The notes: a model not told the origin generated them from the sequence alone. Numbered from the stretch's first letter, positions 1-7,273 are shown. The stretch: DNA of 7,273 bases from an uncultured Clostridia bacterium (GCA_937888485.1 CALAQQ010000068.1:1-7273), one strand, 5' to 3'. Made by a program: numbers and translations.

Positions 1-289
1 CCGTAATACTGCCGACAATTATGAGACGGAGCTTATTATCCTTTACGGTCTCAATTATTTCGCAAAGTTGCTTTGTGCTTCGGGCAAGTCTCGAAACTTC
101 AAGGGTGTATATTGTGTCTCCTGCCTGAGCCTGTTCCAAGAGGGTTGAAAGCTCCTGCTTCACAGCACTGTCGCCGTGTTCGTATTCGAGAAATATTTCC
201 TCTGCTCCCGCCTTTTTCAGTTCATTAACCTGACGAAAAATGTCTTGACGATTCTCATTAGTCGAGCAACGTGCATATCCGTAATTCAT
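1..289 (-). CDS. Serine recombinase (resolvase/invertase family), N-terminal catalytic domain; 3' part beyond the window
   Basis: My own translation of the minus strand from ATG 289..287 gives MNYGYARCSTNENRQDIFRQVNELKKAGAEEIFLEYEHGDSAVKQELSTLLEQAQAGDTIYTLEVSRLARSTKQLCEIIETVKDNKLRLIIVGSIT, with no stop before the window edge. It has the classic YAR(V/C)ST nucleophile motif (Ser9) and a D..(V)SRL.R motif. A GGAG RBS lies at 297-300 (complement). It is absent from the ORF track because it is open at the edge. Confidence 0.85.
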   Translation of the reverse strand, partial: MNYGYARCSTNENRQDIFRQVNELKKAGAEEIFLEYEHGDSAVKQELSTLLEQAQAGDTIYTLEVSRLARSTKQLCEIIETVKDNKLRLIIVGSIT

Positions 290-303
290 GATTTATCTCC
301 TTA

Positions 304-570
304 TCAATCAACAAAGGTGTTGTATGTGAATTTAGCTCCGAGCTTAAAGCCTGCAATAAAACTGTCTGCGTTGCTCACGCAAAGGAACTCACCCGACTGT
401 TTCAGATATGTGTCAAACAGTTCGTTTTCAGCATCCGTCAGTTTTGCGGCAAGTTGTTCCTCGGTCTTTGACAATGCGGCGAGCTTATTTCTGACCTTCA
501 CCCTCAGCTCCGTTGTGATTTCCTGCGGCTCGATGTTGCCGTAATAAAATTCTTCAATAAAGTTCGGCAT
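304..570 (-). CDS. Small hypothetical protein (88 aa), co-operonic with the serine recombinase
   Basis: This is the ORF-track 304..594 frame. I prefer ATG 570..568 (MPNFIEEFYYGNIEPQE...) because a GGAGAAAGG RBS precedes it, while the longer start lies inside the 586-609 hairpin. The stop is TGA. The gene ends 14 nt upstream of the recombinase ATG. Confidence 0.65.
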   Translation of the reverse strand: MPNFIEEFYYGNIEPQEITTELRVKVRNKLAALSKTEEQLAAKLTDAENELFDTYLKQSGEFLCVSNADSFIAGFKLGAKFTYNTFVD

Positions 571-585
571 CTTATTGTCCTTTCT

Positions 586-609
586 CCGCCCCACTGTTGC
601 GTGGGGCGG
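586..609 (-). other. Intercistronic GC-rich stem-loop (9-bp stem, 6-nt loop)
   Basis: CCGCCCCAC (586-594) pairs perfectly with GTGGGGCGG (601-609). It lies between the stop of 621..896 and the RBS of 304..570. No U-tract follows on the minus strand, so it is more likely an mRNA processing, stability or attenuation element than a full terminator. Confidence 0.45.
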
Positions 610-620
610 ATTGCGTATTC

Positions 621-896
621 TTAGCAGATTGAGAAGCGGCGGCTTGAAACCTGCTTTGTGAACTCCTTATACATATCGGCGTGCATCTTCTTGAAAGATG
701 TTGTATCGAATCTCTGTGAAAGAACCGATGTCCAACGGATGATATAAGCTCCTGCTTCAAGTTCCTCGGTGTTCTGTTCAAGCATTTCAGCTTTGAGCAT
801 ATCTCTGATTGCTTCAGCCTCAGCCTTTGCATCCTCGATGATTGTTTCCCACTCTGCGAGAGCCTCGATTTTCTTGATGATTTCGTTGTTTGACAT
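621..896 (-). CDS. Small hypothetical protein (91 aa), acidic helical N-terminus; first gene of the recombinase operon
   Basis: ORF-track frame MSNNEIIKKIEALAEWETIIEDAKAEAEAIRDMLKAEM... An AGGAGA RBS lies 8 nt upstream of ATG 896..894. The stop is TAA. Confidence 0.65.
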   Translation of the reverse strand: MSNNEIIKKIEALAEWETIIEDAKAEAEAIRDMLKAEMLEQNTEELEAGAYIIRWTSVLSQRFDTTSFKKMHADMYKEFTKQVSSRRFSIC

Positions 897-953
897 GATT
901 GATTTCTCCTTTGTTGTGTTGTTTTGATGTGTGGTTGTTTATCAACTGTACTC

Positions 954-982
954 ATTATACTACGAAATTCGTAGTTTGTCAA
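954..982 (-). promoter_or_regulatory. Consensus sigma-70/SigA-type promoter for the leftward operon (621..896, 304..570, serine recombinase)
   Basis: On the minus strand: TTGACA (982..977), a 17-nt spacer, then TATAAT (959..954). The spacer is filled by the palindrome ACTACGAA-A-TTCGTAGT (959-975). Confidence 0.65.
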
Positions 983-1057
983 TACGTTTTTCGTAATTTC
1001 TTTACGATTTTCGAAATATTTTTTCGTTTTGCGTATTGAAATGCTACGAAATCCGTG
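961..1057. promoter_or_regulatory. Array of five phased operator-like sites, consensus TACG-N5-CGTA
   Basis: The sites are 961-973 TACGAAATTCGTA, 983-995 TACGTTTTTCGTA, 1003-1015 TACGATTTTCGAA, 1023-1035 TTCGTTTTGCGTA and 1045-1057 TACGAAATCCGTG. Start-to-start spacing is 22, 20, 20 and 22 bp, about two helical turns. The outer sites lie in the spacers of the two divergent promoters. The next pair abut the -35 boxes. Confidence 0.6.
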
Positions 1058-1064
1058 TTATACT
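1036..1064 (+). promoter_or_regulatory. Promoter for the XRE regulator gene (extended -10)
   Basis: TTGAAA (1036-1041), a 17-nt spacer, then TGtTATACT (-10 at 1059-1064, TG at 1056-1057). Operator-like site 1045-1057 lies in the spacer. An AAGGAG RBS at 1075-1080 lies 9 nt before ATG 1090. Confidence 0.6.
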
Positions 1065-1089
1065 ATCCAAAAGTAAGGAGTGATTATCA

Positions 1090-1305
1090 ATGATTAAGTT
1101 TAAAGTTAAAGTCAGACTTGCAGAATGCAATATGACACAAAAAGAATTAGCAGAAAAAACAGGCATCAGACCGCCGACAGTGTCCGCAATTTGCGTGGGA
1201 ACAGTAAAGCATTTGCCGATTGATGCACTTGACAAAATCTGCGAAGCTCTTGACTGTCAGCCTGCTGACCTCATGGAGTATGTAAACGAACCCGATGTTC
1301 AGTAA
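1090..1305 (+). CDS. XRE/Cro-CI family helix-turn-helix transcriptional regulator, YozG-like (71 aa)
   Basis: The sequence is MIKFKVKVRLAECNMTQKELAEKTGIRPPTVSAICVGTVKHLPIDALDKICEALDCQPADLMEY. It shows the typical HTH (MTQKELAEKTGI...TVS) and the C-terminal LDKIC.AL.C.P.DL motif of small YozG-type regulators. It has a strong RBS and a TAA stop. Confidence 0.9.
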   Translation: MIKFKVKVRLAECNMTQKELAEKTGIRPPTVSAICVGTVKHLPIDALDKICEALDCQPADLMEYVNEPDVQ

Positions 1306-1577
1306 AGGGGTACATTGATTTCTTGAACAAATATCGGTGTTTTTTGAGCGGATTACATCCGATTTTTACCGAGCTTAAAGTGTGCATGAAAGCATTTGTT
1401 TTTCTGAACAGGGGTCGGGGGTGTATTTCGGGAGAAAGAAAAATTTCTTCACCCTTTGCGAAAATGCGTGGCTCACTCTCCGTCTGAATGTGATTTTTAA
1501 TCCGAAACACGATTGTGCTGACCGCAAACGATAGAATTATATTTTCACCGTCAGGCGAACCAAAAGGAACATAAACG

Positions 1578-1624
1578 AAAAAATACGGCAAACCGTGAGA
1601 TTGTCTCTCTTGGTTTGCCGTATT
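1578..1624 (-). terminator. Rho-independent terminator ending the minus-strand RHH/Rep/GIY-YIG operon (may also act on the plus strand for the XRE gene)
   Basis: A 13-bp perfect stem pairs AATACGGCAAACC (1582-1594) with GGTTTGCCGTATT (1612-1624). On the minus strand TTTTTT follows it (A-run 1578-1583 on plus). The stem starts 1 nt after the TGA at 1626-1628. Confidence 0.8.
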
Positions 1625-1625
1625 A

Positions 1626-1757
1626 TCATTTCCACTCCTTGAACAACTCATCAAGAGCCATGTCAAGTGCGGTTTTCATACTCTTTTGCATGAAGGCAAG
1701 AATTTCTGCTTCAAGCACGTTCTTCTTCTTTTTTTTCTTATCTTTCTTGTTCGCCAA
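1626..1757 (-). CDS. Small lysine-rich hypothetical protein (43 aa, TTG start)
   Basis: My own translation gives (M)ANKKDKKKKKKNVLEAEILAFMQKSMKTALDMALDELFKEWK, then TGA. AAGGTG lies 7 nt upstream of TTG 1757..1755. The ORF ends directly at the terminator. It is too short for the ORF track. An internal ATG at Met23 is an alternative start. Confidence 0.4.
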   Translation of the reverse strand: MANKKDKKKKKKNVLEAEILAFMQKSMKTALDMALDELFKEWK

Positions 1758-1934
1758 TTATTTCACCTTGCTTTCAAAAACAAAAGTTATTTCATCGGCT
1801 TCGTCAGGTTCGTTCAGCGAATCAAAGATATTCTATATCTGTTCTGAATAATTCTCCATTGCGGACTTACCGTTTAACTGATAGTAAAATATATCAGGCA
1901 CTTTGCCTTGTTTTCTCCAAAACTCTAAATTCAT
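1758..1934 (-). CDS. Small hypothetical protein (58 codons) with an in-frame TAG at 1833-1835
   Basis: GGAAGGAGA RBS, then ATG 1934..1932: MNLEFWRKQGKVPDIFYYQLNGKSAMENYSEQI-TAG-NIFDSLNEPDEADEITFVFESKVK-TAA. The standard code gives only 33 aa. The frame stays open and protein-like after the TAG. Confidence 0.45.
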
Positions 1935-2362
1935 ATAATTTCTCCTTCCATAATCTAATCAAGGGATATATTCAATGCATCCCTGTTCATTTTGAATTTT
2001 CGCCAATCCTCCGCAGTCGGTATCTGACAGTTCAGCGGCGGCTGATACAAGCGGATAAAATATCCTTCTCTTTCTCCGATTTCTTCTTCGATTTCCGCTT
2101 TTGTTTTGCTCTTGGCGGTGTAAAGAACATGGAATCTGACGGAATAGTTCCGTCTGTTAGCTTCGGCAAGAACTTTATATTTATTCTCTTTTGGATTTCC
2201 CATTGAACACCAATGCTCCGCCATGCGATAAAGGATGTTATTGCTTTTACCGATATAAACGATTTTATTATTGACGGTGATTGAATACACCCCCGAACAC
2301 TAAAACTTTTTGCTCCATTCCTGTTGGATGTTTTTATTATAAATATTTTGAACACTATTCAT
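1931..2362 (-). CDS. GIY-YIG nuclease family protein with an in-frame TAG at 2300-2302 (the standard-code fragment is track ORF 1955..2290)
   Basis: AGGAGA RBS, then ATG 2362..2360: MNSVQNIYNKNIQQEWSKKF-TAG-CSGVYSITVNNKIVYIGKSNNILYRMAEH...EIGEREGYFIRLYQPPLN... The GVY...YIG motif, the conserved Arg and the Glu/Asn match GIY-YIG. The track ORF starts at a GTG that is really the V of GVY. The apparent stop is TAG at 1955-1957. If that TAG is read through, 8 more codons end at TGA 1933..1931, giving an ATGA overlap with the next ATG at 1934..1932. Confidence 0.75.
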
Positions 2363-2377
2363 GTTAATTCTCCTTTC

Positions 2378-2908
2378 TTAAAACACAAAGTCTCCGAGCT
2401 TATCTGAACACTCACTGACTTTTGGATTCTTTATATTATTGGGATTTATATTTTTCCCTATATTATTATGCGTATTATCAATAACCCCTGCAGAGGTACA
2501 TTCAAAATTCAAAGGGGTATTATCAATGTCGGCTGAGGGGGTATTTTCAATATCCGCCGCACTTTTGTAAATTGCATCATAATCAACTATGATTTCACCT
2601 TGCTGACCGTTCTGACTTGGCTTGTGGATTATCCAACCCTTTTCAATCAATGCTTTTCTTGCGTTTTTATATGTAGATTCTGACATTCCGCATCTGCTCA
2701 GAACGGTTGCCTCTGCAACAGCGAAACTGCCATTATCGGCGTTGCCTGTCAAAAACCACATAAGTTTGAGCTAAGCTCCTTCTTTGCCTGACAGACCGTT
2801 CATTATGATTGATTCAAGGTGATGTGTCCTGATTGCTTTTCCCCATTTATTATCCATATCTTTTTCCCCTTTAGACTTCAATATCGGTGCCTGATTGAAT
2901 ACGCCCAT
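2378..2908 (-). CDS. Winged-helix/HTH DNA-binding protein, replication-initiator-like, with an in-frame TAG at 2771-2773
   Basis: GGAGGA RBS (2923..2918), then ATG 2908..2906: MGVFNQAPILKSKGEKDMDNKWGKAIRTHHLESIIMNGLSGKEGA-TAG-LKLMWFLTGNADNGSFAVAEATVLSRCGMSESTYKNARKALIEKGWI... The stop is TAA at 2378-2380. The track ORF 2378..2761 is only the part after the TAG. The Rep-like call rests on the LS..(A)..L..L...N.....S...L....G.S..T...A...L...G.I pattern and is an inference. Confidence 0.6.
2472..2557. repeat. Iteron-like repeats inside the 3' half of the Rep-like gene
   Basis: GTATT(A/T)TCAAT occurs three times, at 2472-2482, 2517-2527 and 2541-2551. The last two sit in a 24-bp tandem unit, GGGGTATT[A/T]TCAAT[G/A]TC[G/C]GC, at 2514-2533 and 2538-2557. 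That unit encodes SADIENTP/SADIDNTP. A very AT-rich stretch at about 2425-2482 lies next to it and contains TATATTATT twice (2432-2440 and 2459-2467). Confidence 0.55.
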
Positions 2909-3050
2909 TGCCGCAAATCCTCCACTATTCACAAATAAATCTGATGTATTGACTTATGTTCATGTTATATTTTTCTGCCTGCTATTGGATTGATTCTTTT
3001 TCCCTTTCGGTCAGGCGAAGGTCAATCTTTTTATTCTTTATAGCTTTCAT
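2871..3050 (-). CDS. Ribbon-helix-helix protein (MobC/CopG-like) with in-frame TAGs at 2982-2984 and 2925-2927
   Basis: GGAGAG RBS, then ATG 3050..3048: MKAIKNKKIDLRLTEREKESIQ-TAG-QAEKYNMNISQYIRFICE-TAG-WRICGNGRIQSGTDIEV-TAA (2873..2871). The pattern (R)LT..E...I...A...(G/N).S.S.YIR is typical of RHH and MobC-type proteins, and the first TAG lies inside that motif. The standard code gives only 22 aa. The extended form overlaps the next gene start (2908) by 38 nt. Confidence 0.55.
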
Positions 3051-3119
3051 TTTTTCTCTCCTTTATCTTGTAAATTTTCTTTTTAATGATTTATCAGACT
3101 TTGTCCGACCTTCTATTAT

Positions 3120-3148
3120 ATTATATCAAAAATTTTTCTTAAAATCAA
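3120..3148 (-). promoter_or_regulatory. Promoter of the TAG-containing RHH/Rep/GIY-YIG operon (extended -10)
   Basis: On the minus strand: TTGATT (3148..3143), a 17-nt spacer, then TGaTATAAT (-10 at 3125..3120). A second overlapping TATAAT lies at 3120..3115. It sits just downstream of the terminator at 3165-3203. Confidence 0.6.
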
Positions 3149-3164
3149 AAAAGAGCGGTCGCCG

Positions 3165-3203
3165 CAAACAAAAACGCCGCTGAATCAATTAAGTTCAGCG
3201 GCG
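3165..3203 (-). terminator. Rho-independent terminator after the paralog pair
   Basis: A 10-bp stem pairs CGCCGCTGAA (3175-3184) with TTCAGCGGCG (3194-3203). On the minus strand TTTTTGTTTG follows it. A second small GC hairpin plus T-run follows at about 3150-3165. Confidence 0.75.
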
Positions 3204-3238
3204 GACTTGCTTTATTAAAATACATGGTTTTGTTCCTT

Positions 3239-3685
3239 TCAGGAAACTTTATCTTTCTTATCATATTTACTTTCGTCAGGGGGAGAAACAACCGTGAGAG
3301 TGGGTTTGAAATCAACCTCAAATTTAGGTGTTTCTTTATAATTTGGAAACTGTGAAATAAACCAATCAGAAACATACTTGTAGGGACTTTTCATCGGAGC
3401 GGACATTTTCTGAACCTTCTCAAACATAGCAATGAGTTCATCAGAATTGTTATAACATTCGATATGCTTTCTCATGTTTTTATATTTGAATCTCTTGTTC
3501 TCTCTTGGCTTTTTCTGTTCTCTGCCTGATTTGATGCTGACCTTAATGTTGGGGAAATCGTGCTTTATTGCCTGAACCATTGTGTATTCGGGAGAACCGT
3601 AAACTTCTGCGGCATCCCTGAACTTATAGTTCATAACAAGAGTGTTTGTTGTGTAGTCAATTCTATATCCGTTATTCTTTGCCAT
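3239..3685 (-). CDS. Hypothetical protein, paralog B of a tandem pair (148 aa)
   Basis: This is track ORF 3239..3694. I prefer ATG 3685 (MAKNNGYRIDYTT...), which is preceded by GAAAGGA. It shares YG(S/T)PEY, KY(K/E)NM, FEKV(Q/K)(K/R)MS and (S/N)PYKYV.DWF blocks with 3708..4148. The stop is TGA. Confidence 0.75.
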   Translation of the reverse strand: MAKNNGYRIDYTTNTLVMNYKFRDAAEVYGSPEYTMVQAIKHDFPNIKVSIKSGREQKKPRENKRFKYKNMRKHIECYNNSDELIAMFEKVQKMSAPMKSPYKYVSDWFISQFPNYKETPKFEVDFKPTLTVVSPPDESKYDKKDKVS

Positions 3686-3707
3686 TTTTATCAATTCCTT
3701 TCTTTAA

Positions 3708-4148
3708 TTACATGTTTGATGCCTTGTCAAGTTCGGTTATTTCTGCAGTTTTCTTTTTTTCAGCTCTCTGTTTTTCAACATTTTTGATAAATGTTTCGAA
3801 CGATTCATAACCTTCAAATTTCTTTTCAAACCAATCAAGAACATATTTATATGGGTTTTTCTGAACCTTAGACATTCTTTTTACCTTTTCGAATTCTGCT
3901 TTAAGAATATCCTTGTTTTCCTGCTCATCAATGAATGTTTCCATATTCTCATATTTGAGGTTTAAGGTTGTTTTCTTATTGGGATTCTTCTTGATTGTCT
4001 TAGTGGTCATTGTAAAATTAGGGTTTTCTGCTATAAACTCACGCCACTGTCTGTATTCGGGTGTTCCGTAGATTCTTGCCTTCTTTTCAAATGCCTTTGA
4101 TACCTGAGCCATGTTGTTGTCCATAATTTTGATTGTATTTTTTGTCAT
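3708..4148 (-). CDS. Hypothetical protein, paralog A of a tandem pair (146 aa)
   Basis: Track ORF MTKNTIKIMDNNMAQVSKAFEKKARIYGTPEYRQW... It is collinear with 3239..3685 through shared motif blocks. The stop is TAA. The RBS is weak. Confidence 0.75.
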   Translation of the reverse strand: MTKNTIKIMDNNMAQVSKAFEKKARIYGTPEYRQWREFIAENPNFTMTTKTIKKNPNKKTTLNLKYENMETFIDEQENKDILKAEFEKVKRMSKVQKNPYKYVLDWFEKKFEGYESFETFIKNVEKQRAEKKKTAEITELDKASNM

Positions 4149-4318
4149 TTTTAATTACCAACTTTCTTAAATTATTTTTTTAGTTTGAATTTTATTTGTT
4201 TTAGTTTTTGTGGGATTGATGATGTGTTGCTCTTGGCTTCGCTAAGTGAATGGTTGCCTGAACTGCTTCATGTTTGTTCGTTCCTTTCGTGTTGGTGTTG
4301 TTCATCTGTTGTGTCTAC

Positions 4319-4347
4319 ATTATAGCACCCACCAACACCCTACCCAA
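4319..4347 (-). promoter_or_regulatory. Promoter for the paralog-pair transcription unit (extended -10)
   Basis: On the minus strand: TTGGGT (4347..4342), a 17-nt spacer, then TGcTATAAT (-10 at 4324..4319). It lies just downstream of the integrase terminator. Confidence 0.5.
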
Positions 4348-4373
4348 GCACATAACTATTCCTCTGCTTTTGC

Positions 4374-4412
4374 AAAAAAAGAAAAAGAACAACTTTTTTT
4401 AGTTGTTCTTTT
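4374..4412 (-). terminator. Rho-independent terminator after the integrase gene
   Basis: A 10-bp stem pairs AAGAACAACT (4385-4394) with AGTTGTTCTT (4401-4410), with a T6 loop. On the minus strand TTTCTTTTTTT follows it (A-run 4374-4384 on plus). Confidence 0.8.
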
Positions 4413-4485
4413 ATCTCAAAGTTGTCAAAAGTTGATAGTTTAAAGCTAATTGAATCGATTTAAACTCTTTTGAGCGGATTTGCAG

Positions 4486-5418
4486 TTATTTATTAAGTTT
4501 TATTCTTTCACTATTGGATTTAAAATTATTTAAAGGGGAGAATGCATCGTAGTTCTTTGTTATATCCTTATCAAATATAGCACAATAATGTTTTGTCATA
4601 TCGAGAGTTGAATGTCCCAATAACCTCTGCAAAGTAAAAGCGTTGCCGCCGCAGTCAACCAAATACTTCTTAGCAAAAGTGTGTCTGAACAAGTGAATGC
4701 TTGTCTTTTGGACACCTCTGCGTTTGTTATACTTTGCAATAGTGCATCGTAAACCGTTTTCTGATAGCTGACCGCCTGTTTCATTCGGGAAAAGGAAATC
4801 ATCGTCTGAACCGCCTCTTATTCTCATATATTCATTTAATATACCGCAAAGCAAAGAACAGAGGGGTATCACCTGAGATTTCTTGTTTTTGGTGTGCCTG
4901 AGGTAAATCACCTGATTGTTCAGGTCAACATCTTTGTTGGTAATATTGCGGACTGAGGCGGCACGGCAACCGTTATTCAAGAGTAAATTTATTATCACCC
5001 AATTACGGTATTCTGAAAAACTGCACTTCCTCATATTGGGCTTGTTCAATAGCAATTTAAGCTCTAAATCGGTATAGGTGTCCTTGATTGTTTCCTCAGC
5101 TCTATACCTTGACAGGCTCAAATTCGCAATTCCTTCTTCTTTGCACCAAGAGAAAAAAGATTTCAGAGTTCGGGTATAACTCTGTATCGAATTTGCGGAT
5201 AAGCCGACATCACGCATACTTGAAATCATTTTTTCAAGGTCAGCCTTTTCAATGGAATCCATAGGATTATCAATGGGTAAATGTTTTCCGATTGATGATA
5301 AATGCTCTTTATATGTCCTCAATGTCTTTTCGCTAAGACCCAAAGACTTTTTTGCGAGCAGGAAATCATCAAAGGTTTCCGCCATTGAAACTGAAACTTT
5401 CATCTTGATTTTTGCCAT
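4486..5418 (-). CDS. Tyrosine-type site-specific recombinase/integrase (310 aa)
   Basis: This is track ORF 4486..5454. I prefer ATG 5418 (MAKIKMKVSVSMAETFDDFLL...), which has an AGGAG RBS 10 nt upstream; the track start is a TTG. It has an N-terminal SAM-like core-binding domain. The catalytic signature is present: R in NGCRAASVRN, HLFRHTF (H..R), and LGHSTLDMTKHY (H...Y). The stop is TAA. Confidence 0.9.
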   Translation of the reverse strand: MAKIKMKVSVSMAETFDDFLLAKKSLGLSEKTLRTYKEHLSSIGKHLPIDNPMDSIEKADLEKMISSMRDVGLSANSIQSYTRTLKSFFSWCKEEGIANLSLSRYRAEETIKDTYTDLELKLLLNKPNMRKCSFSEYRNWVIINLLLNNGCRAASVRNITNKDVDLNNQVIYLRHTKNKKSQVIPLCSLLCGILNEYMRIRGGSDDDFLFPNETGGQLSENGLRCTIAKYNKRRGVQKTSIHLFRHTFAKKYLVDCGGNAFTLQRLLGHSTLDMTKHYCAIFDKDITKNYDAFSPLNNFKSNSERIKLNK

Positions 5419-5476
5419 TTTTGCAACACTCCTGATTCGTATATTTTTCGTCAAAAATCAAGCGTGTCAACAAAAC

Positions 5477-5520
5477 AAAGAAAAAACCGTTCAAACCTTT
5501 AAGTTTGAACGGTTTTCTTT
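5477..5520. terminator. Bidirectional rho-independent terminator between tRNA-Pro and the integrase gene
   Basis: CCGTTCAAAC (5487-5496) pairs with GTTTGAACGG (5503-5512). Flanking A4/T4 runs extend the stem. T-rich tracts follow it on both strands. It lies about 5 nt past the tRNA CCA end. Confidence 0.75.
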
Positions 5521-5524
5521 GTTA

Positions 5525-5600
5525 TGGTCCGAGTGGCGAGACTTGAACTCACGGCCTCTTGACCCCCAGTCAAGCGCGCTACCAACTGCGCCACACCCGG
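5525..5600 (-). tRNA. tRNA-Pro (anticodon GGG), 76 nt, with encoded CCA
   Basis: Manual cloverleaf fold of the minus strand: CCGGGTG TG GCGC AGTTGGTA GCGC G CTTGA CTGGGGG TCAAG AGGCC GTGAG TTCAAGT CTCGC CACTCGG A CCA. The 7-bp acceptor stem has one G-U pair. The C1-G72 pair and A73 are typical of bacterial tRNA-Pro. U33 is followed by GGG and G37. The T-loop is TTCAAGT. Confidence 0.85.
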
Positions 5601-5642
5601 ATATTCTGTTTTGGGTTGAGATTTATCAACTCAACGAATGCT

Positions 5643-5670
5643 ATTATAACACAGAAACTTGAAATGTCAA
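5643..5670 (-). promoter_or_regulatory. Promoter for tRNA-Pro (extended -10)
   Basis: On the minus strand: TTGACA (5670..5665), a 16-nt spacer, then TGtTATAAT (-10 at 5648..5643). It lies about 40 nt upstream of the mature tRNA 5' end. Confidence 0.6.
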
Positions 5671-5728
5671 GCAATTTTTCAAAAAAACCAAAAGTTTTTT
5701 TATTTTATCAATTTTTTTCATTTTCCTA

Positions 5729-5757
5729 TTGACAAACAGAAATTTTCGATGTATGAT
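5729..5757 (+). promoter_or_regulatory. Promoter for the symporter gene
   Basis: TTGACA (5729-5734), a 17-nt spacer, then TATGAT (5752-5757). An AAAGGAG RBS at 5801-5807 lies 8 nt before ATG 5816. Confidence 0.55.
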
Positions 5758-5815
5758 GTATTCACTTTAGCAGTTAAAAGCTTTAAAGCTGTAATGGTTA
5801 AAAGGAGTGAAGCAA

Positions 5816-7273
5816 ATGGATAGAATTGCAATATGGTTAACCATAGGTATTTACATTGTTATTATGGTTATAATCGGAATTACTCAGGGTAAAAAAGCAA
5901 AAAGCATTGCCGACCTCACAGTTGGCGGCAGAAACGCAGGCGCATGGCTCTCTGCCCTCTCTTACGGTACTGCTTATTTTTCGGCAGTTATGTTCGTAGG
6001 TTATGCAGGCGGTACCGGAAAAGGCTTCGGTCTCTGGGGTATTCTTGCGGGTCTTGGAAATGCTGTTTTCGGTTCATGGCTTGCATGGAAAGTTCTTGCA
6101 AGAAGAACAAGAGACACATCTTATCGTCTCAAGATTAAAACAATGCCGCAATTCCTTGAAAAGCGTTATTCAAGCGAAAGCATGCGACTTTTTGCATGCA
6201 TAATCATATTTGTATTCCTTATCCCTTATTCAGCATCGGTTTACAAGGGACTTGCTTCTGTTGCAGATGTTCTTCTTGGTATAAATGTTGAAATCTGTAT
6301 GATTATCATCGCTGTTGTCGCAGCACTTCTTCTTGTCTTCGGCGGTTATCTTGTTCAGGCAAGAGCCGACTTTATGCAGGGAATTGTTATGATGTTCGGC
6401 ATTGCACTTCTTATCGTATGTGTTATTCGCTGTGATGCCGTCGGAGGATTCGAAGGAATAATGGAATACGCACATACCCTCGGTACACAGCCTTCAGCAA
6501 CAAACGGATTACCCAAGCTCAACTCTTCACAGTGGATTTCACTCTGGGCAACCGTTCTCATGACAAGCTTCGGCACATGGGGTCTTCCTCAGATGGTTAC
6601 AAAGTATTTCGGAATCAAGAACGATACACAGGCAAAGAAAGGCATTACAATCTCTACATTCTTTGCATTTCTCGTTGCAGGTGGCGGATATTTCATCGGC
6701 TCGCTTTGCTACAGATACTTTACATATGCACAGCTTAACGATCCTGCAGACCCCAACTACATTGCGCAGGACTTCATCGTTCCGAATATGCTCAAGGAAT
6801 CAAATCTTCCCTCTGTTCTTCTCGGAATAGTTCTTGTTCTTCTCATTGCGGCTTCGGTTTCGACACTTTGCTCGGTAACACTTACCGCAAGCTCAACTCT
6901 TACAATTGACTTTATCAAACATTTCAAAAAAGACCTGAGCGATAAAAAATCATCATTGATTATTAAGGTATTATGTGTTATATTTGTAATATGTTCGTAT
7001 ATTATAGCTAACACGGACACCGCAATTCTTGACATGATGAGCTACTCATGGGGCATCATTTCAGGCTCTTTCCTTGCTCCTTACGTTATTTCTCTCTATT
7101 GGAAAAAGATGAACACCAAAGGTGCATGGGCAGGTATCATCGGCGGATTTGTTATTGCAGCAATTCCCGCAGCAGCAAAACTTGCAACAAACTTCACTGC
7201 CGATGAAACAGTTATTATGCTTGCAGGAAAAGGTCCCGTGTTTGCATGCATAGCAATGATCGCTTCACTTGCA
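5816..7273 (+). CDS. Sodium:solute symporter (SSS) family transporter, partial (486 codons, 3' end beyond the window)
   Basis: My own translation from ATG 5816 gives MDRIAIWLTIGIYIVIMVIIGITQGKKAKSIADLTVGGRNAGAWLSALSYGTAYFSAVMFVGYAGGTGKGFGLWGIL... and continues without a stop to 7273. It is a multi-span hydrophobic protein with the SSS-type N-terminal pattern (..GGR....W....S...T..SA..F.G..G). It is absent from the ORF track because it is open at the edge. The substrate cannot be told from sequence alone. Confidence 0.85.
   Translation, partial: MDRIAIWLTIGIYIVIMVIIGITQGKKAKSIADLTVGGRNAGAWLSALSYGTAYFSAVMFVGYAGGTGKGFGLWGILAGLGNAVFGSWLAWKVLARRTRDTSYRLKIKTMPQFLEKRYSSESMRLFACIIIFVFLIPYSASVYKGLASVADVLLGINVEICMIIIAVVAALLLVFGGYLVQARADFMQGIVMMFGIALLIVCVIRCDAVGGFEGIMEYAHTLGTQPSATNGLPKLNSSQWISLWATVLMTSFGTWGLPQMVTKYFGIKNDTQAKKGITISTFFAFLVAGGGYFIGSLCYRYFTYAQLNDPADPNYIAQDFIVPNMLKESNLPSVLLGIVLVLLIAASVSTLCSVTLTASSTLTIDFIKHFKKDLSDKKSSLIIKVLCVIFVICSYIIANTDTAILDMMSYSWGIISGSFLAPYVISLYWKKMNTKGAWAGIIGGFVIAAIPAAAKLATNFTADETVIMLAGKGPVFACIAMIASLA

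Follow-up and report, generated by a model that had tools for sequence, protein, structure and literature searches.

Reassignment of the amber codon TAG to glutamine has been described in phages and prophages, whose integrases are free of TAG (Borges et al., 10.1101/2021.08.26.457843). In the same study, the Topaz phages were found to measure 22 ± 3 kb, and one Topaz prophage was located in an Oscillospiraceae genome next to a tRNA-Thr. TAG suppressor tRNAs were detected in only 40% of the TAG-recoded phage genomes, with the mechanism left open, and the standard code was reported for the hosts of the recoded prophages. In these elements, recoding is believed to govern when late genes and lysis genes are expressed; in the full-text literature it was found reported for phages and prophages only and not for satellites, plasmids, or other islands. 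The present analysis concerns a 7,273-nucleotide (nt) stretch of DNA from an uncultured Clostridia bacterium (GCA_937888485.1 CALAQQ010000068.1:1-7273), referred to here as the window. It contains part of a small integrated island with a five-gene operon on the minus strand, four genes of which are interrupted by in-frame TAG codons. We consider it probable that this operon is subject to module-specific amber recoding (TAG to glutamine), which would gate its translation and depend on a decoder acting in trans.

The island resembles the code 15 phages of the Topaz clade (10.1101/2021.08.26.457843) in that its in-frame TAGs lie in conserved genes and align best with glutamine, its integrase is TAG-free, it is integrated beside a tRNA gene, and its Oscillospirales host uses the standard code. 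As is often the case for these phages, no suppressor tRNA is detectable, and the integrase, the ribbon-helix-helix (RHH) protein, and the replication initiator-like (Rep-like) protein of the two element types are distantly homologous. Unlike the phages, the islands measure 8 to 12 kb and lack genes for terminase, portal, capsid, tail, and lysis proteins. Recoding in the island is confined to one five-gene operon, whereas the phages recode most genes, including structural and lysis genes (27 of 30 open reading frames [ORFs] in the complete relative). The TAG-free island genes encoding pA and pB (two conserved proteins), p91, a DUF6809 protein, a resolvase, a WYL regulator, and variable cargo have no phage counterpart.

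Phage satellites of the phage-inducible chromosomal island (PICI)/Staphylococcus aureus pathogenicity island (SaPI)-like and P4-like types share further features with the island, namely, a similar size, integration at a tRNA gene by a tyrosine integrase with attachment (att) repeats, an own replication initiator, an XRE-type regulator with divergent promoters, defense-type cargo (in the related island L010), and possible helper kin. The island differs from them in having no recognizable packaging or capsid-remodeling genes, and its helper is only a candidate. Such satellites are derepressed transcriptionally by helper proteins, whereas translational gating is proposed here for the island; a full-text search of the literature found no translational gating by a reassigned stop codon in satellites. 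The combination of a NikA-like RHH protein, a winged helix-turn-helix (HTH) Rep protein, and a resolvase also resembles a plasmid-type maintenance or mobilization set, as in integrative mobilizable elements and small plasmids. In contrast to these elements, the island has no identified relaxase or origin of transfer (oriT) and no megablast match in PLSDB, and such elements are not known to carry stop codons in frame.

In-frame TAG codons in the operon

The minus strand of positions 1560 to 3120 was translated in three frames, and each gene was followed through its TAG codons. The operon consists of the following genes:

2871..3050, minus strand: RHH (NikA-like) gene; ATG at 3050; 59 amino acids (aa) with both TAGs read; stop TAA
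2378..2908, minus strand: Rep-like winged-HTH protein; 176 aa; ATG at 2908; stop TAA
1931..2362, minus strand: GIY-YIG nuclease; ATG at 2362; 143 aa; stop TGA, overlapping the next ATG
1758..1934, minus strand: small ORF; ATG at 1934; 58 aa; stop TAA
1626..1757, minus strand: fifth and last ORF of the operon; 43 aa; TTG start; stop TGA; no TAG in the window

The RHH gene contains in-frame TAGs at 2982-2984 (codon 23) and 2925-2927 (codon 42), the Rep-like gene contains one at 2771-2773, the GIY-YIG gene two, at 2300-2302 (codon 21) and 1955-1957 (codon 136), and the small ORF one at 1833-1835 (codon 34). The true start of the Rep-like gene is the ATG at 2908, which has a GGAGGA ribosome binding site (RBS) upstream, so that its TAG is codon 46. 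An earlier note, made from the sequence alone, had listed the six TAGs and counted 45 codons between the RBS-preceded ATG and the TAG of the winged-HTH gene; all of these assignments were exact. The note had spoken of the first four genes of an operon. The TAGs indeed lie in those four, and the operon extends to a fifth gene.

Across the 479 codons of the operon (about 480 in the note), no internal TAA or TGA and no frameshift was present, and the five genes end, in order, with TAA, TAA, TGA, TAA, and TGA. The gene junctions are tidy once TAG is read: the TGA of the GIY-YIG gene overlaps the next ATG (ATGA), the TAA of the small ORF abuts the TTG of the fifth ORF, and the TAA of the RHH gene is followed by a downstream ATG at 2857. 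TAG trinucleotides on the operon strand are in frame in 6 of 10 cases, compared with 5 of 74 for TAA/TGA, these five being the real stops only. Given the codon composition of the operon, the probability of obtaining TAG in each of six random nonsense mutations is about 0.002 to 0.003.

The domain sequence continues across the TAGs, as the note had claimed. A NikA-like Pfam match (E = 3.9e-9) spans residues 5 to 37 of the RHH protein and crosses the TAG at residue 23. Replication-initiator families of PHROG match the Rep-like protein with E values down to 3.7e-11 and a coverage of residues 14/19 to 144, and the phrog_428 and phrog_678 matches cross its TAG. The GIY-YIG protein was recognized by Pfam (E = 1.4e-7) and by the endonuclease family phrog_1111, whose match (residues 9 to 114) crosses the TAG at residue 21. 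The six TAGs of the operon are most likely translated sense codons, read as glutamine as in genetic code 15.

TAG codons in related islands

Relatives were gathered by exact-protein look-up, a search for Rep homologs, contig look-ups, and scans of genomes and metagenomes. This yielded 13 non-redundant islands and additional distant relatives. The exact-protein look-up with the 146-aa pA revealed two near-identical contigs. The closest relative, Logan contig L002, is 96% identical to the window overall and has kept all six TAGs. Its stored gene calls correspond to the read-through lengths of the RHH protein (59 aa), the GIY-YIG nuclease (143 aa), and the small ORF (58 aa), and Rep was called at 181 aa, likewise through its TAG. 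Because the L002 operon is only about 1.7% divergent, it says little by itself about TAG conservation, and distant lineages were therefore examined.

The search for Rep homologs resulted in 53 proteins, and in those of full length the TAG column is occupied by Q. At the DNA level, this column is a real Gln codon in L003 and a TAG in L007, and code 11 gene calls on the NCBI records of metagenome-assembled genomes (MAGs) begin just past it. Column 46 of Rep is TAG in 11 of 13 lineages and CAA or CAG in the other 2; columns 23 and 138 of the GIY-YIG protein are TAG in 8 of 12 lineages each. Judged from the alignments, the TAGs at these columns look maintained, not drifting. Every lineage has two to three TAGs in the GIY-YIG gene, at partly differing columns. 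In the RHH relatives, TAG occurs at an adjacent column or at the conserved Gln of 'NISQYIRF', and the small-ORF relatives have TAGs at other columns, e.g., 'NRA#GKVPD' compared with 'RKQGKVPD' in the window (# denotes TAG). Such shifts of the TAG column are also seen in 'IQ#QAEKY'/'IQE#ARKY', 'NISQYIRF'/'NTS#FIRF', and 'RLYQPPLN'/'RLY#PPLN'. The fifth ORF (1757-1626) contains one TAG in some relatives.

In the operons of the 13 islands, 72 in-frame TAGs and 166 CAA/CAG codons were counted in 5,825 codons. The other core genes (encoding the integrase, pA, pB, XRE, p91, and DUF6809 proteins) contained 1 apparent TAG and 273 CAA/CAG codons in 8,413 codons. The difference between the two gene sets in TAG versus CAA/CAG usage was significant (Fisher p = 6e-26). 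The apparent exception, a TAG in p96 of L019, was rejected, as its position is upstream of the start codon. There was no TAG in the genes for the integrase, pA, and pB in any lineage. No frameshift and no in-frame TAA or TGA occurred in this element or the 12 other islands, and all core genes of all lineages terminate in TAA or TGA.

Analysis of the residues aligned with TAG revealed Gln as the most frequent one (19 of 66, 29%), in comparison to a background of 3.1% (p = 1e-13). Three alignment columns hold exclusively Gln codons or TAG. For Rep, the ratio of nonsynonymous to synonymous substitution rates (dN/dS) was 0.18 in the segment preceding the TAG and 0.16 in the segment following it; the corresponding values for the first TAG of the GIY-YIG gene were 0.16 and 0.15. 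In both genes dS was above 1, and TAG columns are common to lineages with saturated synonymous divergence (dS above 1). Programmed stop-codon read-through was considered as a candidate and rejected, the base after the TAG being unconserved (T 26, A 21, G 14, and C 11 among the 72 TAGs). These comparative tests support the preference of the earlier note for amber reassignment or suppressor dependence over decay: both sides of each TAG belong to one conserved protein, the signs of general decay are absent, relatives carry TAGs too and partly at other positions, and Gln, the expected residue, is the one most often found at the TAG columns.

Distant Rep relatives (29 to 40% identity) carry one to four TAGs each. 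A Rep profile scan revealed only two distant phage-like contigs, L015 and L016, which, like L014, are not clearly recoded. No match was obtained when window positions 1-5520 were compared by megablast with the phage sequences of GenBank and the plasmids of PLSDB or when IMG/VR was scanned with a single Rep protein.

Two further observations were made near distant Rep homologs. Contig L049 (positions 115-2602) contains, beside its Rep relative, a gene for a C5 cytosine DNA methylase (Pfam E = 6e-49; one in-frame TAG) and, adjacent to it, a 438-aa ORF with three in-frame TAGs; both appear to be recoded and may be a restriction-modification pair. Contig L026 (positions 1-6700; from an Aristaeellaceae MAG) has a series of minus-strand ORFs rich in TAGs in frame, with as many as 14 within 245 codons, and reaches its top coding density (0.99) with TGA as sense; this stretch may be another alternatively coded element.

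Kinship to TAG-recoded phages

Contig L051 is a phage fragment in which the genes for the large terminase, an SPP1-type portal protein (E = 2e-95), and the tail fiber carry in-frame TAGs. Its integrase gene has no TAG and its RHH gene has one, and its integrase, RHH, and Rep proteins are homologous to those of the island. The position of the RHH TAG is similar in L051, where it precedes the conserved '...ISEFVRYACE' helix, and in the island. A search with the L051 portal protein retrieved IMG/VR genomes of 22.7 to 23.4 kb. The coding density of these relatives was 0.41 to 0.60 under code 11 versus 0.80 to 0.84 with TAG as sense, and the integrase gene of one of them adjoins a tRNA-Thr. As judged from their sequences, they match the Topaz phages of Borges et al. 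The recoded phages of about 23 kb come from samples and have a GC range similar to those of the islands. The genes shared by island and phages are only those for the integrase (30 to 36% protein identity), RHH (35 to 47%), and Rep (31 to 36%).

A complete circular assembly of a Topaz-like phage of 23,135 bp with a 77-bp terminal repeat was obtained from L057 and L052 (IMGVR_UViG_3300013426_000012). TAG occurs in 27 of its 30 ORFs, with 87 TAGs in all and up to 11 per gene; the integrase gene is TAG-free, and only about three ORFs of at least 70 aa are without TAG.

At the nucleotide level, a stretch of about 50 nt (82 to 87% identity) matches between the promoter region of the operon (window positions 3111-3159) and positions 4086-4136 of L051, where it lies between the integrase gene and the RHH-Rep genes. 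The match is absent from the other three phages and looks like consensus promoter elements and was therefore not used as evidence.

Organization of the island and its relatives

Outside the five genes of the operon, the window contains the following features:

5525..5600, minus strand: host tRNA-Pro(GGG), predicted by ARAGORN (Rfam tRNA, 63.6 bits); its 3' end is the integration site and one island boundary
4486..5418, minus strand: tyrosine integrase; 310 aa from the ATG at 5418; stop TAA; no TAG
3708..4148, minus strand: pA, conserved 146-aa protein; no TAG
3239..3694, minus strand: pB, 151 aa; pA paralog with 31% identity to the pA family; no TAG
3169..3203, minus strand: intrinsic-terminator-like hairpin and U-run, 3' of pB; -23.5 kcal/mol, z = -4.0, then UUUUUGUUU
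3120..3148, minus strand: promoter-like site of the recoded operon; TTGATT-17-TATAAT, extended -10 TG
1576..1624, minus strand: intrinsic terminator of the operon; -26.8 kcal/mol, z = -8.0, then UUUUUU
1306..1625, no strand assigned: non-coding spacer between the operon and the XRE gene; conserved blocks; candidate origin or other cis-acting DNA site
1090..1305, plus strand: XRE/Cro-C1-type HTH regulator; Pfam HTH_26, E = 2.5e-20; no TAG
621..896, minus strand: p91, conserved 91-aa protein; phrog_6244, E = 1.4e-13; no TAG
304..570, minus strand: DUF6809 protein (p96); Pfam DUF6809, E = 2.2e-19; no TAG
1..289, minus strand: serine recombinase (resolvase), N-terminal part; Pfam Resolvase, E = 4.6e-18; runs off the window

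Similarity to L002 begins at window position 5520, and in L010 the 3' half of the tRNA-Pro is repeated 12.3 kb away, which represents the second att site. The window stops inside the recombinase gene, so that the far boundary of the island is out of view and the island continues past the left end; in relatives, full-length resolvases of 194 to 213 aa occupy the same position. In L002, at positions 1-377, the similarity halts at the tRNA boundary, and a DUF6809 gene on the opposite strand replaces the tRNA-Pro; the L002 island thus sits in a different context, possibly beside another element.

Complete islands are bounded by tRNA-derived direct repeats: the L010 island (12.3 kb) is integrated at tRNA-Pro, and the islands of L009 (8.1 kb) and L019 (about 9 kb) are both integrated at tRNA-Thr. 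In L004, two different elements of 3.9 kb and 8.1 kb are arranged in tandem at tRNA-Pro. A tandem at this same tRNA-Pro was seen in L004 (3114-15170) and L005 (3393-7330), with the 3' half of the L004 tRNA repeated at 7004 and 15126; the 3.9-kb element encodes an acetyltransferase, an HTH protein, and small ORFs and is followed by the 8.1-kb recoded island. The gene order is conserved among the islands: integrase, pA, pB, the recoded operon, the XRE gene on the opposite strand, p91, sometimes DUF6809, and the serine recombinase. Variable cargo follows, usually with a WYL regulator. In L010 (12953-19358), this variable region encodes an Eco57I-type methyltransferase, a T5orf172/ResIII protein, and a WYL regulator; by its domain content, this predicted cargo is a split type IIG-like restriction-modification system and is defense-like.

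Virion and lysis functions (terminase, portal, capsid, tail, holin/lysin) are not encoded in four att-delimited islands of 8.1 to 12.3 kb, whereas the related phages L051 and L052/L057 do encode such functions. Likewise, the islands revealed no packaging or capsid-redirecting genes, no terS, and no cos/pac similarity to the phages. Relaxase families were absent from the Pfam and PHROG scans of the window genes and from the precomputed Pfam hits of the complete islands, and no oriT was identified alongside the NikA-like RHH protein. The islands are thus small and integrated, with an integrase and their own replication module and without a full set of virion genes. The description of a small tRNA-associated element without structural genes in the earlier note therefore holds, and within the island the recoding is strictly operon-specific. 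The islands reside in MAGs of Oscillospirales that come from animal guts and belong to Acutalibacteraceae, Oscillospiraceae, and Ca. Fimenecus.

The integrase was assigned by Pfam Phage_integrase (E = 4e-26) and an N-terminal SAM-like domain, and its ORF reaches back to a TTG at 5454. For pA, 57 homologs were recovered. pA and pB are encoded in nearly all islands directly upstream of the recoded operon. Searches of Pfam, PHROG, and PADLOC for a function of pA and pB gave no match, and an AlphaFold2 model of pA (mean predicted local distance difference test score of 81) had no fold match in PDB at E <= 0.001. The hairpin at 3169-3203 lies between the pA/pB genes and the recoded operon, and the promoter-like block at 3120-3148 is conserved among the island lineages in the intergenic alignment. 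The terminator after pB, the promoter-like site, and the strong terminator at 1576-1624 together indicate that the recoded genes form their own transcription unit.

The length of the spacer downstream of the operon is nearly constant (295 to 322 nt across 11 island lineages), and its strongly conserved blocks include CATTCAGACGGAGAGTGAGCCACGCA, TCCCGAAATACACCCCC, and TTTGTTCAAGAAA. In the family alignment, RNAalifold supported the terminator as the sole helix, with one compensatory change. A hidden non-coding RNA in the spacer was therefore rejected: there was no covariation beyond the terminator, no Rfam or tRNA match, and no conserved CTA-containing loop. Because the RNAalifold support is limited to the terminator, the spacer is more likely a DNA site, e.g., an origin or a Rep/RHH binding site, than an RNA.

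The XRE gene is convergent with the operon and divergent from p91, which has 64 to 94% identity across the island lineages and no TAG. The region separating p91 from XRE contains divergent promoter-like sites: the minus-strand site (982-954) is a perfect TTGACA-17-TATAAT, and the plus-strand site (1036-1064) reads TTGAAA-17-TATACT. This arrangement is reminiscent of a phage-type genetic switch. For the family as a whole, the comparison of sequences establishes that the TAGs are conserved and under selection, resemble Gln codons, and occur only in the operon, together with the bounds and gene content of the islands and their kinship to recoded phages.

Search for a decoder and the host code

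The host genes flanking the islands are intact and contain no in-frame TAG. The flanks of L003-L031 contain 99 host ORFs that measure at least 150 aa and lie outside the islands; 70 of them terminate in TAA, 26 in TGA, and 3 in TAG. This share of TAG stops seems low for Firmicutes, which could be relevant if amber suppression is tolerated by the host. All three TAG stops appear genuine; that of RnfB in L010 reads TAG-GTT-TAA. An ORF past the RnfB TAG was discarded as a continuation of the gene, since a TAA separates it from that TAG, and two TAGs that seemed to fall within a 594-aa host ORF of L023 are both upstream of the start codon.

Several results weigh against amber decoding of the operon or limit its extent. 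ARAGORN detected no tRNA with a CUA anticodon, which the earlier note had led us to expect, in about 57 loci comprising islands, flanks, and related recoded phages. Permissive Rfam scans of the window and eight further loci (complete islands and loci of the recoded phages) revealed only host tRNAs and an att remnant, and the complete 23,135-bp phage is without a tRNA by both ARAGORN and permissive Rfam, so that the phage relatives cannot be demonstrated as a source of a suppressor tRNA. An odd 96-nt 'tRNA-Lys' in L019 was discarded as a candidate, being the att copy of the tRNA-Thr 3' half. Columns 23 and 138 of the GIY-YIG protein alternate between TAG and Leu or Asp, never CAA or CAG. The TAGs at 2925-2927 and 1955-1957 are near the C termini and may double as terminators when TAG is undecoded. 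The tails past both are weakly constrained or overlapping (dN/dS of 0.87 for the 7-codon tail of the GIY-YIG gene), and the TAG at 2925-2927, the second in the RHH gene, falls in the RBS region of the Rep-like gene and could act as a stop. The sense reading of these two TAGs is ambiguous.

The missing tRNA is no refutation, because suppressor tRNAs were reported in just 40% of recoded phages and the complete phage relative is without one as well. Leaky near-cognate read-through would be insufficient for 87 TAGs, up to 11 per gene, in a genome without a tRNA, which points to efficient amber decoding from an unrecognized source.

Alternative explanations

Under the standard code, all four TAG-bearing genes are interrupted, as expected of inactivating nonsense mutations in a decaying element, and the closest relative, with its 1.7% divergence in the operon, says little about TAG conservation. 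However, the 13 lineages have accumulated 72 TAGs and not one TAA, TGA, or frameshift, dN/dS is about 0.16, TAG columns are shared at dS above 1, and TAG aligns preferentially with Gln; together with the low probability calculated for the six TAGs of the window alone, this makes pseudogenization the least credible explanation, which we practically discard. A little more room is left for real terminators with downstream re-initiation, that is, for split genes with Rep starting from ATG 2761 and the GIY-YIG protein from GTG 2290. These starts do lie three to four codons past the TAGs, and code 11 calls on NCBI/JGI records give Rep fragments of 134 to 137 aa. Against such splitting, which we regard as improbable, many TAGs lie within domains and have no start codon after them (RHH column 34; GIY-YIG columns 84, 88, 109, and 118), the segments before the TAG are equally constrained (dN/dS of 0.16 to 0.18) and within the same profile matches, and L003 and L025 have a Gln codon in place of the TAG and a continuous Rep ORF. 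TAG is also the codon for pyrrolysine, and some Firmicutes decode it in this way. Among the residues aligned with TAG, Lys ranks second (9 of 66), but it is not enriched (14% versus a background of 11%), whereas Gln is enriched about ninefold, and three columns hold solely Gln codons or TAG. Furthermore, pyl genes were not found in any Pfam-annotated flank, and Borges et al. (10.1101/2021.08.26.457843) saw only TAG-to-Gln changes where the code of the phage differs from that of its host. Insertion of pyrrolysine or another residue by a host Pyl system is therefore very unlikely. Decay, split genes, programmed read-through, and pyrrolysine are all poor fits to the comparative data, and module-specific recoding of TAG to glutamine remains the preferred explanation.

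Within this explanation, the source of the decoder can be sought in a phage, in the host, or in the island. A helper phage might supply it: the island would parasitize Topaz-like TAG-recoded phages, and upon infection or induction such a phage would establish an amber-decoding state, in which Rep, the nuclease, and the RHH protein would be translated, and the island would replicate and possibly hitchhike as a satellite. This proposal, a subhypothesis of operon recoding that concerns the decoder source, is consistent with islands of 8 to 12 kb with intact att repeats, an integrase, and Rep but no virion genes, and with the cargo of L010, in which a WYL regulator accompanies a split type IIG restriction-modification system, as defense-like cargo is reminiscent of satellites. 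The homology of integrase, RHH, and Rep to proteins of the recoded phages of about 23 kb from similar samples and GC range and the similarly placed RHH TAG in L051 point in the same direction, and Borges et al. (10.1101/2021.08.26.457843) suggest that recoding could sense co-infecting phages with the same code. We advance it tentatively, however, since no suppressor tRNA that could be lent to the island was detected in the complete phage relative, the islands lack a packaging or capsid-redirecting gene and cos/pac similarity, the nucleotide match is limited to the promoter-like stretch of about 50 nt in one phage, and the protein identities between island and phages are only 30 to 43%. Alternatively, the host itself may supply the decoder through a chromosomal tRNA(CUA), a weak or regulated release factor 1 (RF1), or a stress-induced state, of which both the islands and the Topaz-like phages without a tRNA would make use; in that case, the lock would react to the physiology of the host and not to a helper phage. 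The complete recoded phage, with its 87 TAGs and no tRNA, implies efficient decoding from another source; its roughly three TAG-free ORFs of at least 70 aa leave little room for a phage-encoded switch; and the rarity of TAG stops (3 of 99 ORFs) would make host-level suppression less costly. On the other hand, the island-flanking host sequences of about 15 genomes revealed no tRNA(CUA), host and non-operon island genes contain no in-frame TAG, which is unexpected under constitutive decoding, and hosts of recoded prophages were reported to use the standard code (10.1101/2021.08.26.457843). The strict division between modules with and without TAG favors a conditional state. Host decoding is thus a possibility on which we would not rely; it and a recoded phage are about equally likely as decoder sources, and an unrecognized factor of the island, e.g., pA/pB, accounts for most of the remainder.

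Proposed mechanism

The genes for the integrase, pA/pB, XRE, p91, DUF6809, and the resolvase and the cargo of L009 and L010 are TAG-free, so that their products can be made under the standard code of the host. From the operon, by contrast, only truncated peptides would be made under the standard code until an amber-decoding activity is acquired. We infer a gating function from this arrangement: TAG would serve as a translational lock on the replicative module of the island, and in an amber-decoding state the RHH protein, Rep, the nuclease, and the small proteins would be produced. As no recognizable suppressor tRNA is present in the island, the decoder must act in trans. It could come from the code-switched state that a recoded phage, either co-resident or infecting, would establish; the island would then be satellite-like. 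Alternatively, the host itself could have a conditional capacity to decode amber codons. As a speculative model, we propose that a non-viral island has a genetic-code lock that would be opened by a recoded helper phage or by inducible host-level amber suppression.

Significance

Recoding is described here in widespread islands of 8 to 12 kb without virion genes, where it affects one replication/nuclease operon and is selected across many gut Oscillospirales species; this is new in comparison to the known recoding of phages and prophages. Public records are affected systematically, as the standard-code gene calls on MAG records fragment these genes. With five genes and six TAGs, the operon offers a compact test bed for TAG decoding without a detectable suppressor tRNA, and the complete 23-kb phage poses the same question. 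If TAG is read as Gln, the expected peptides would include ...GKEGA-Q-LK... and ...KKF-Q-CSGVYSITVNNK.... A 'second genetic code' may be a shared resource or signal among kinds of mobile elements in one host clade. If the helper model were true, the island would represent a new principle of satellite activation and the first satellite-like element to sense its helper via the genetic code.

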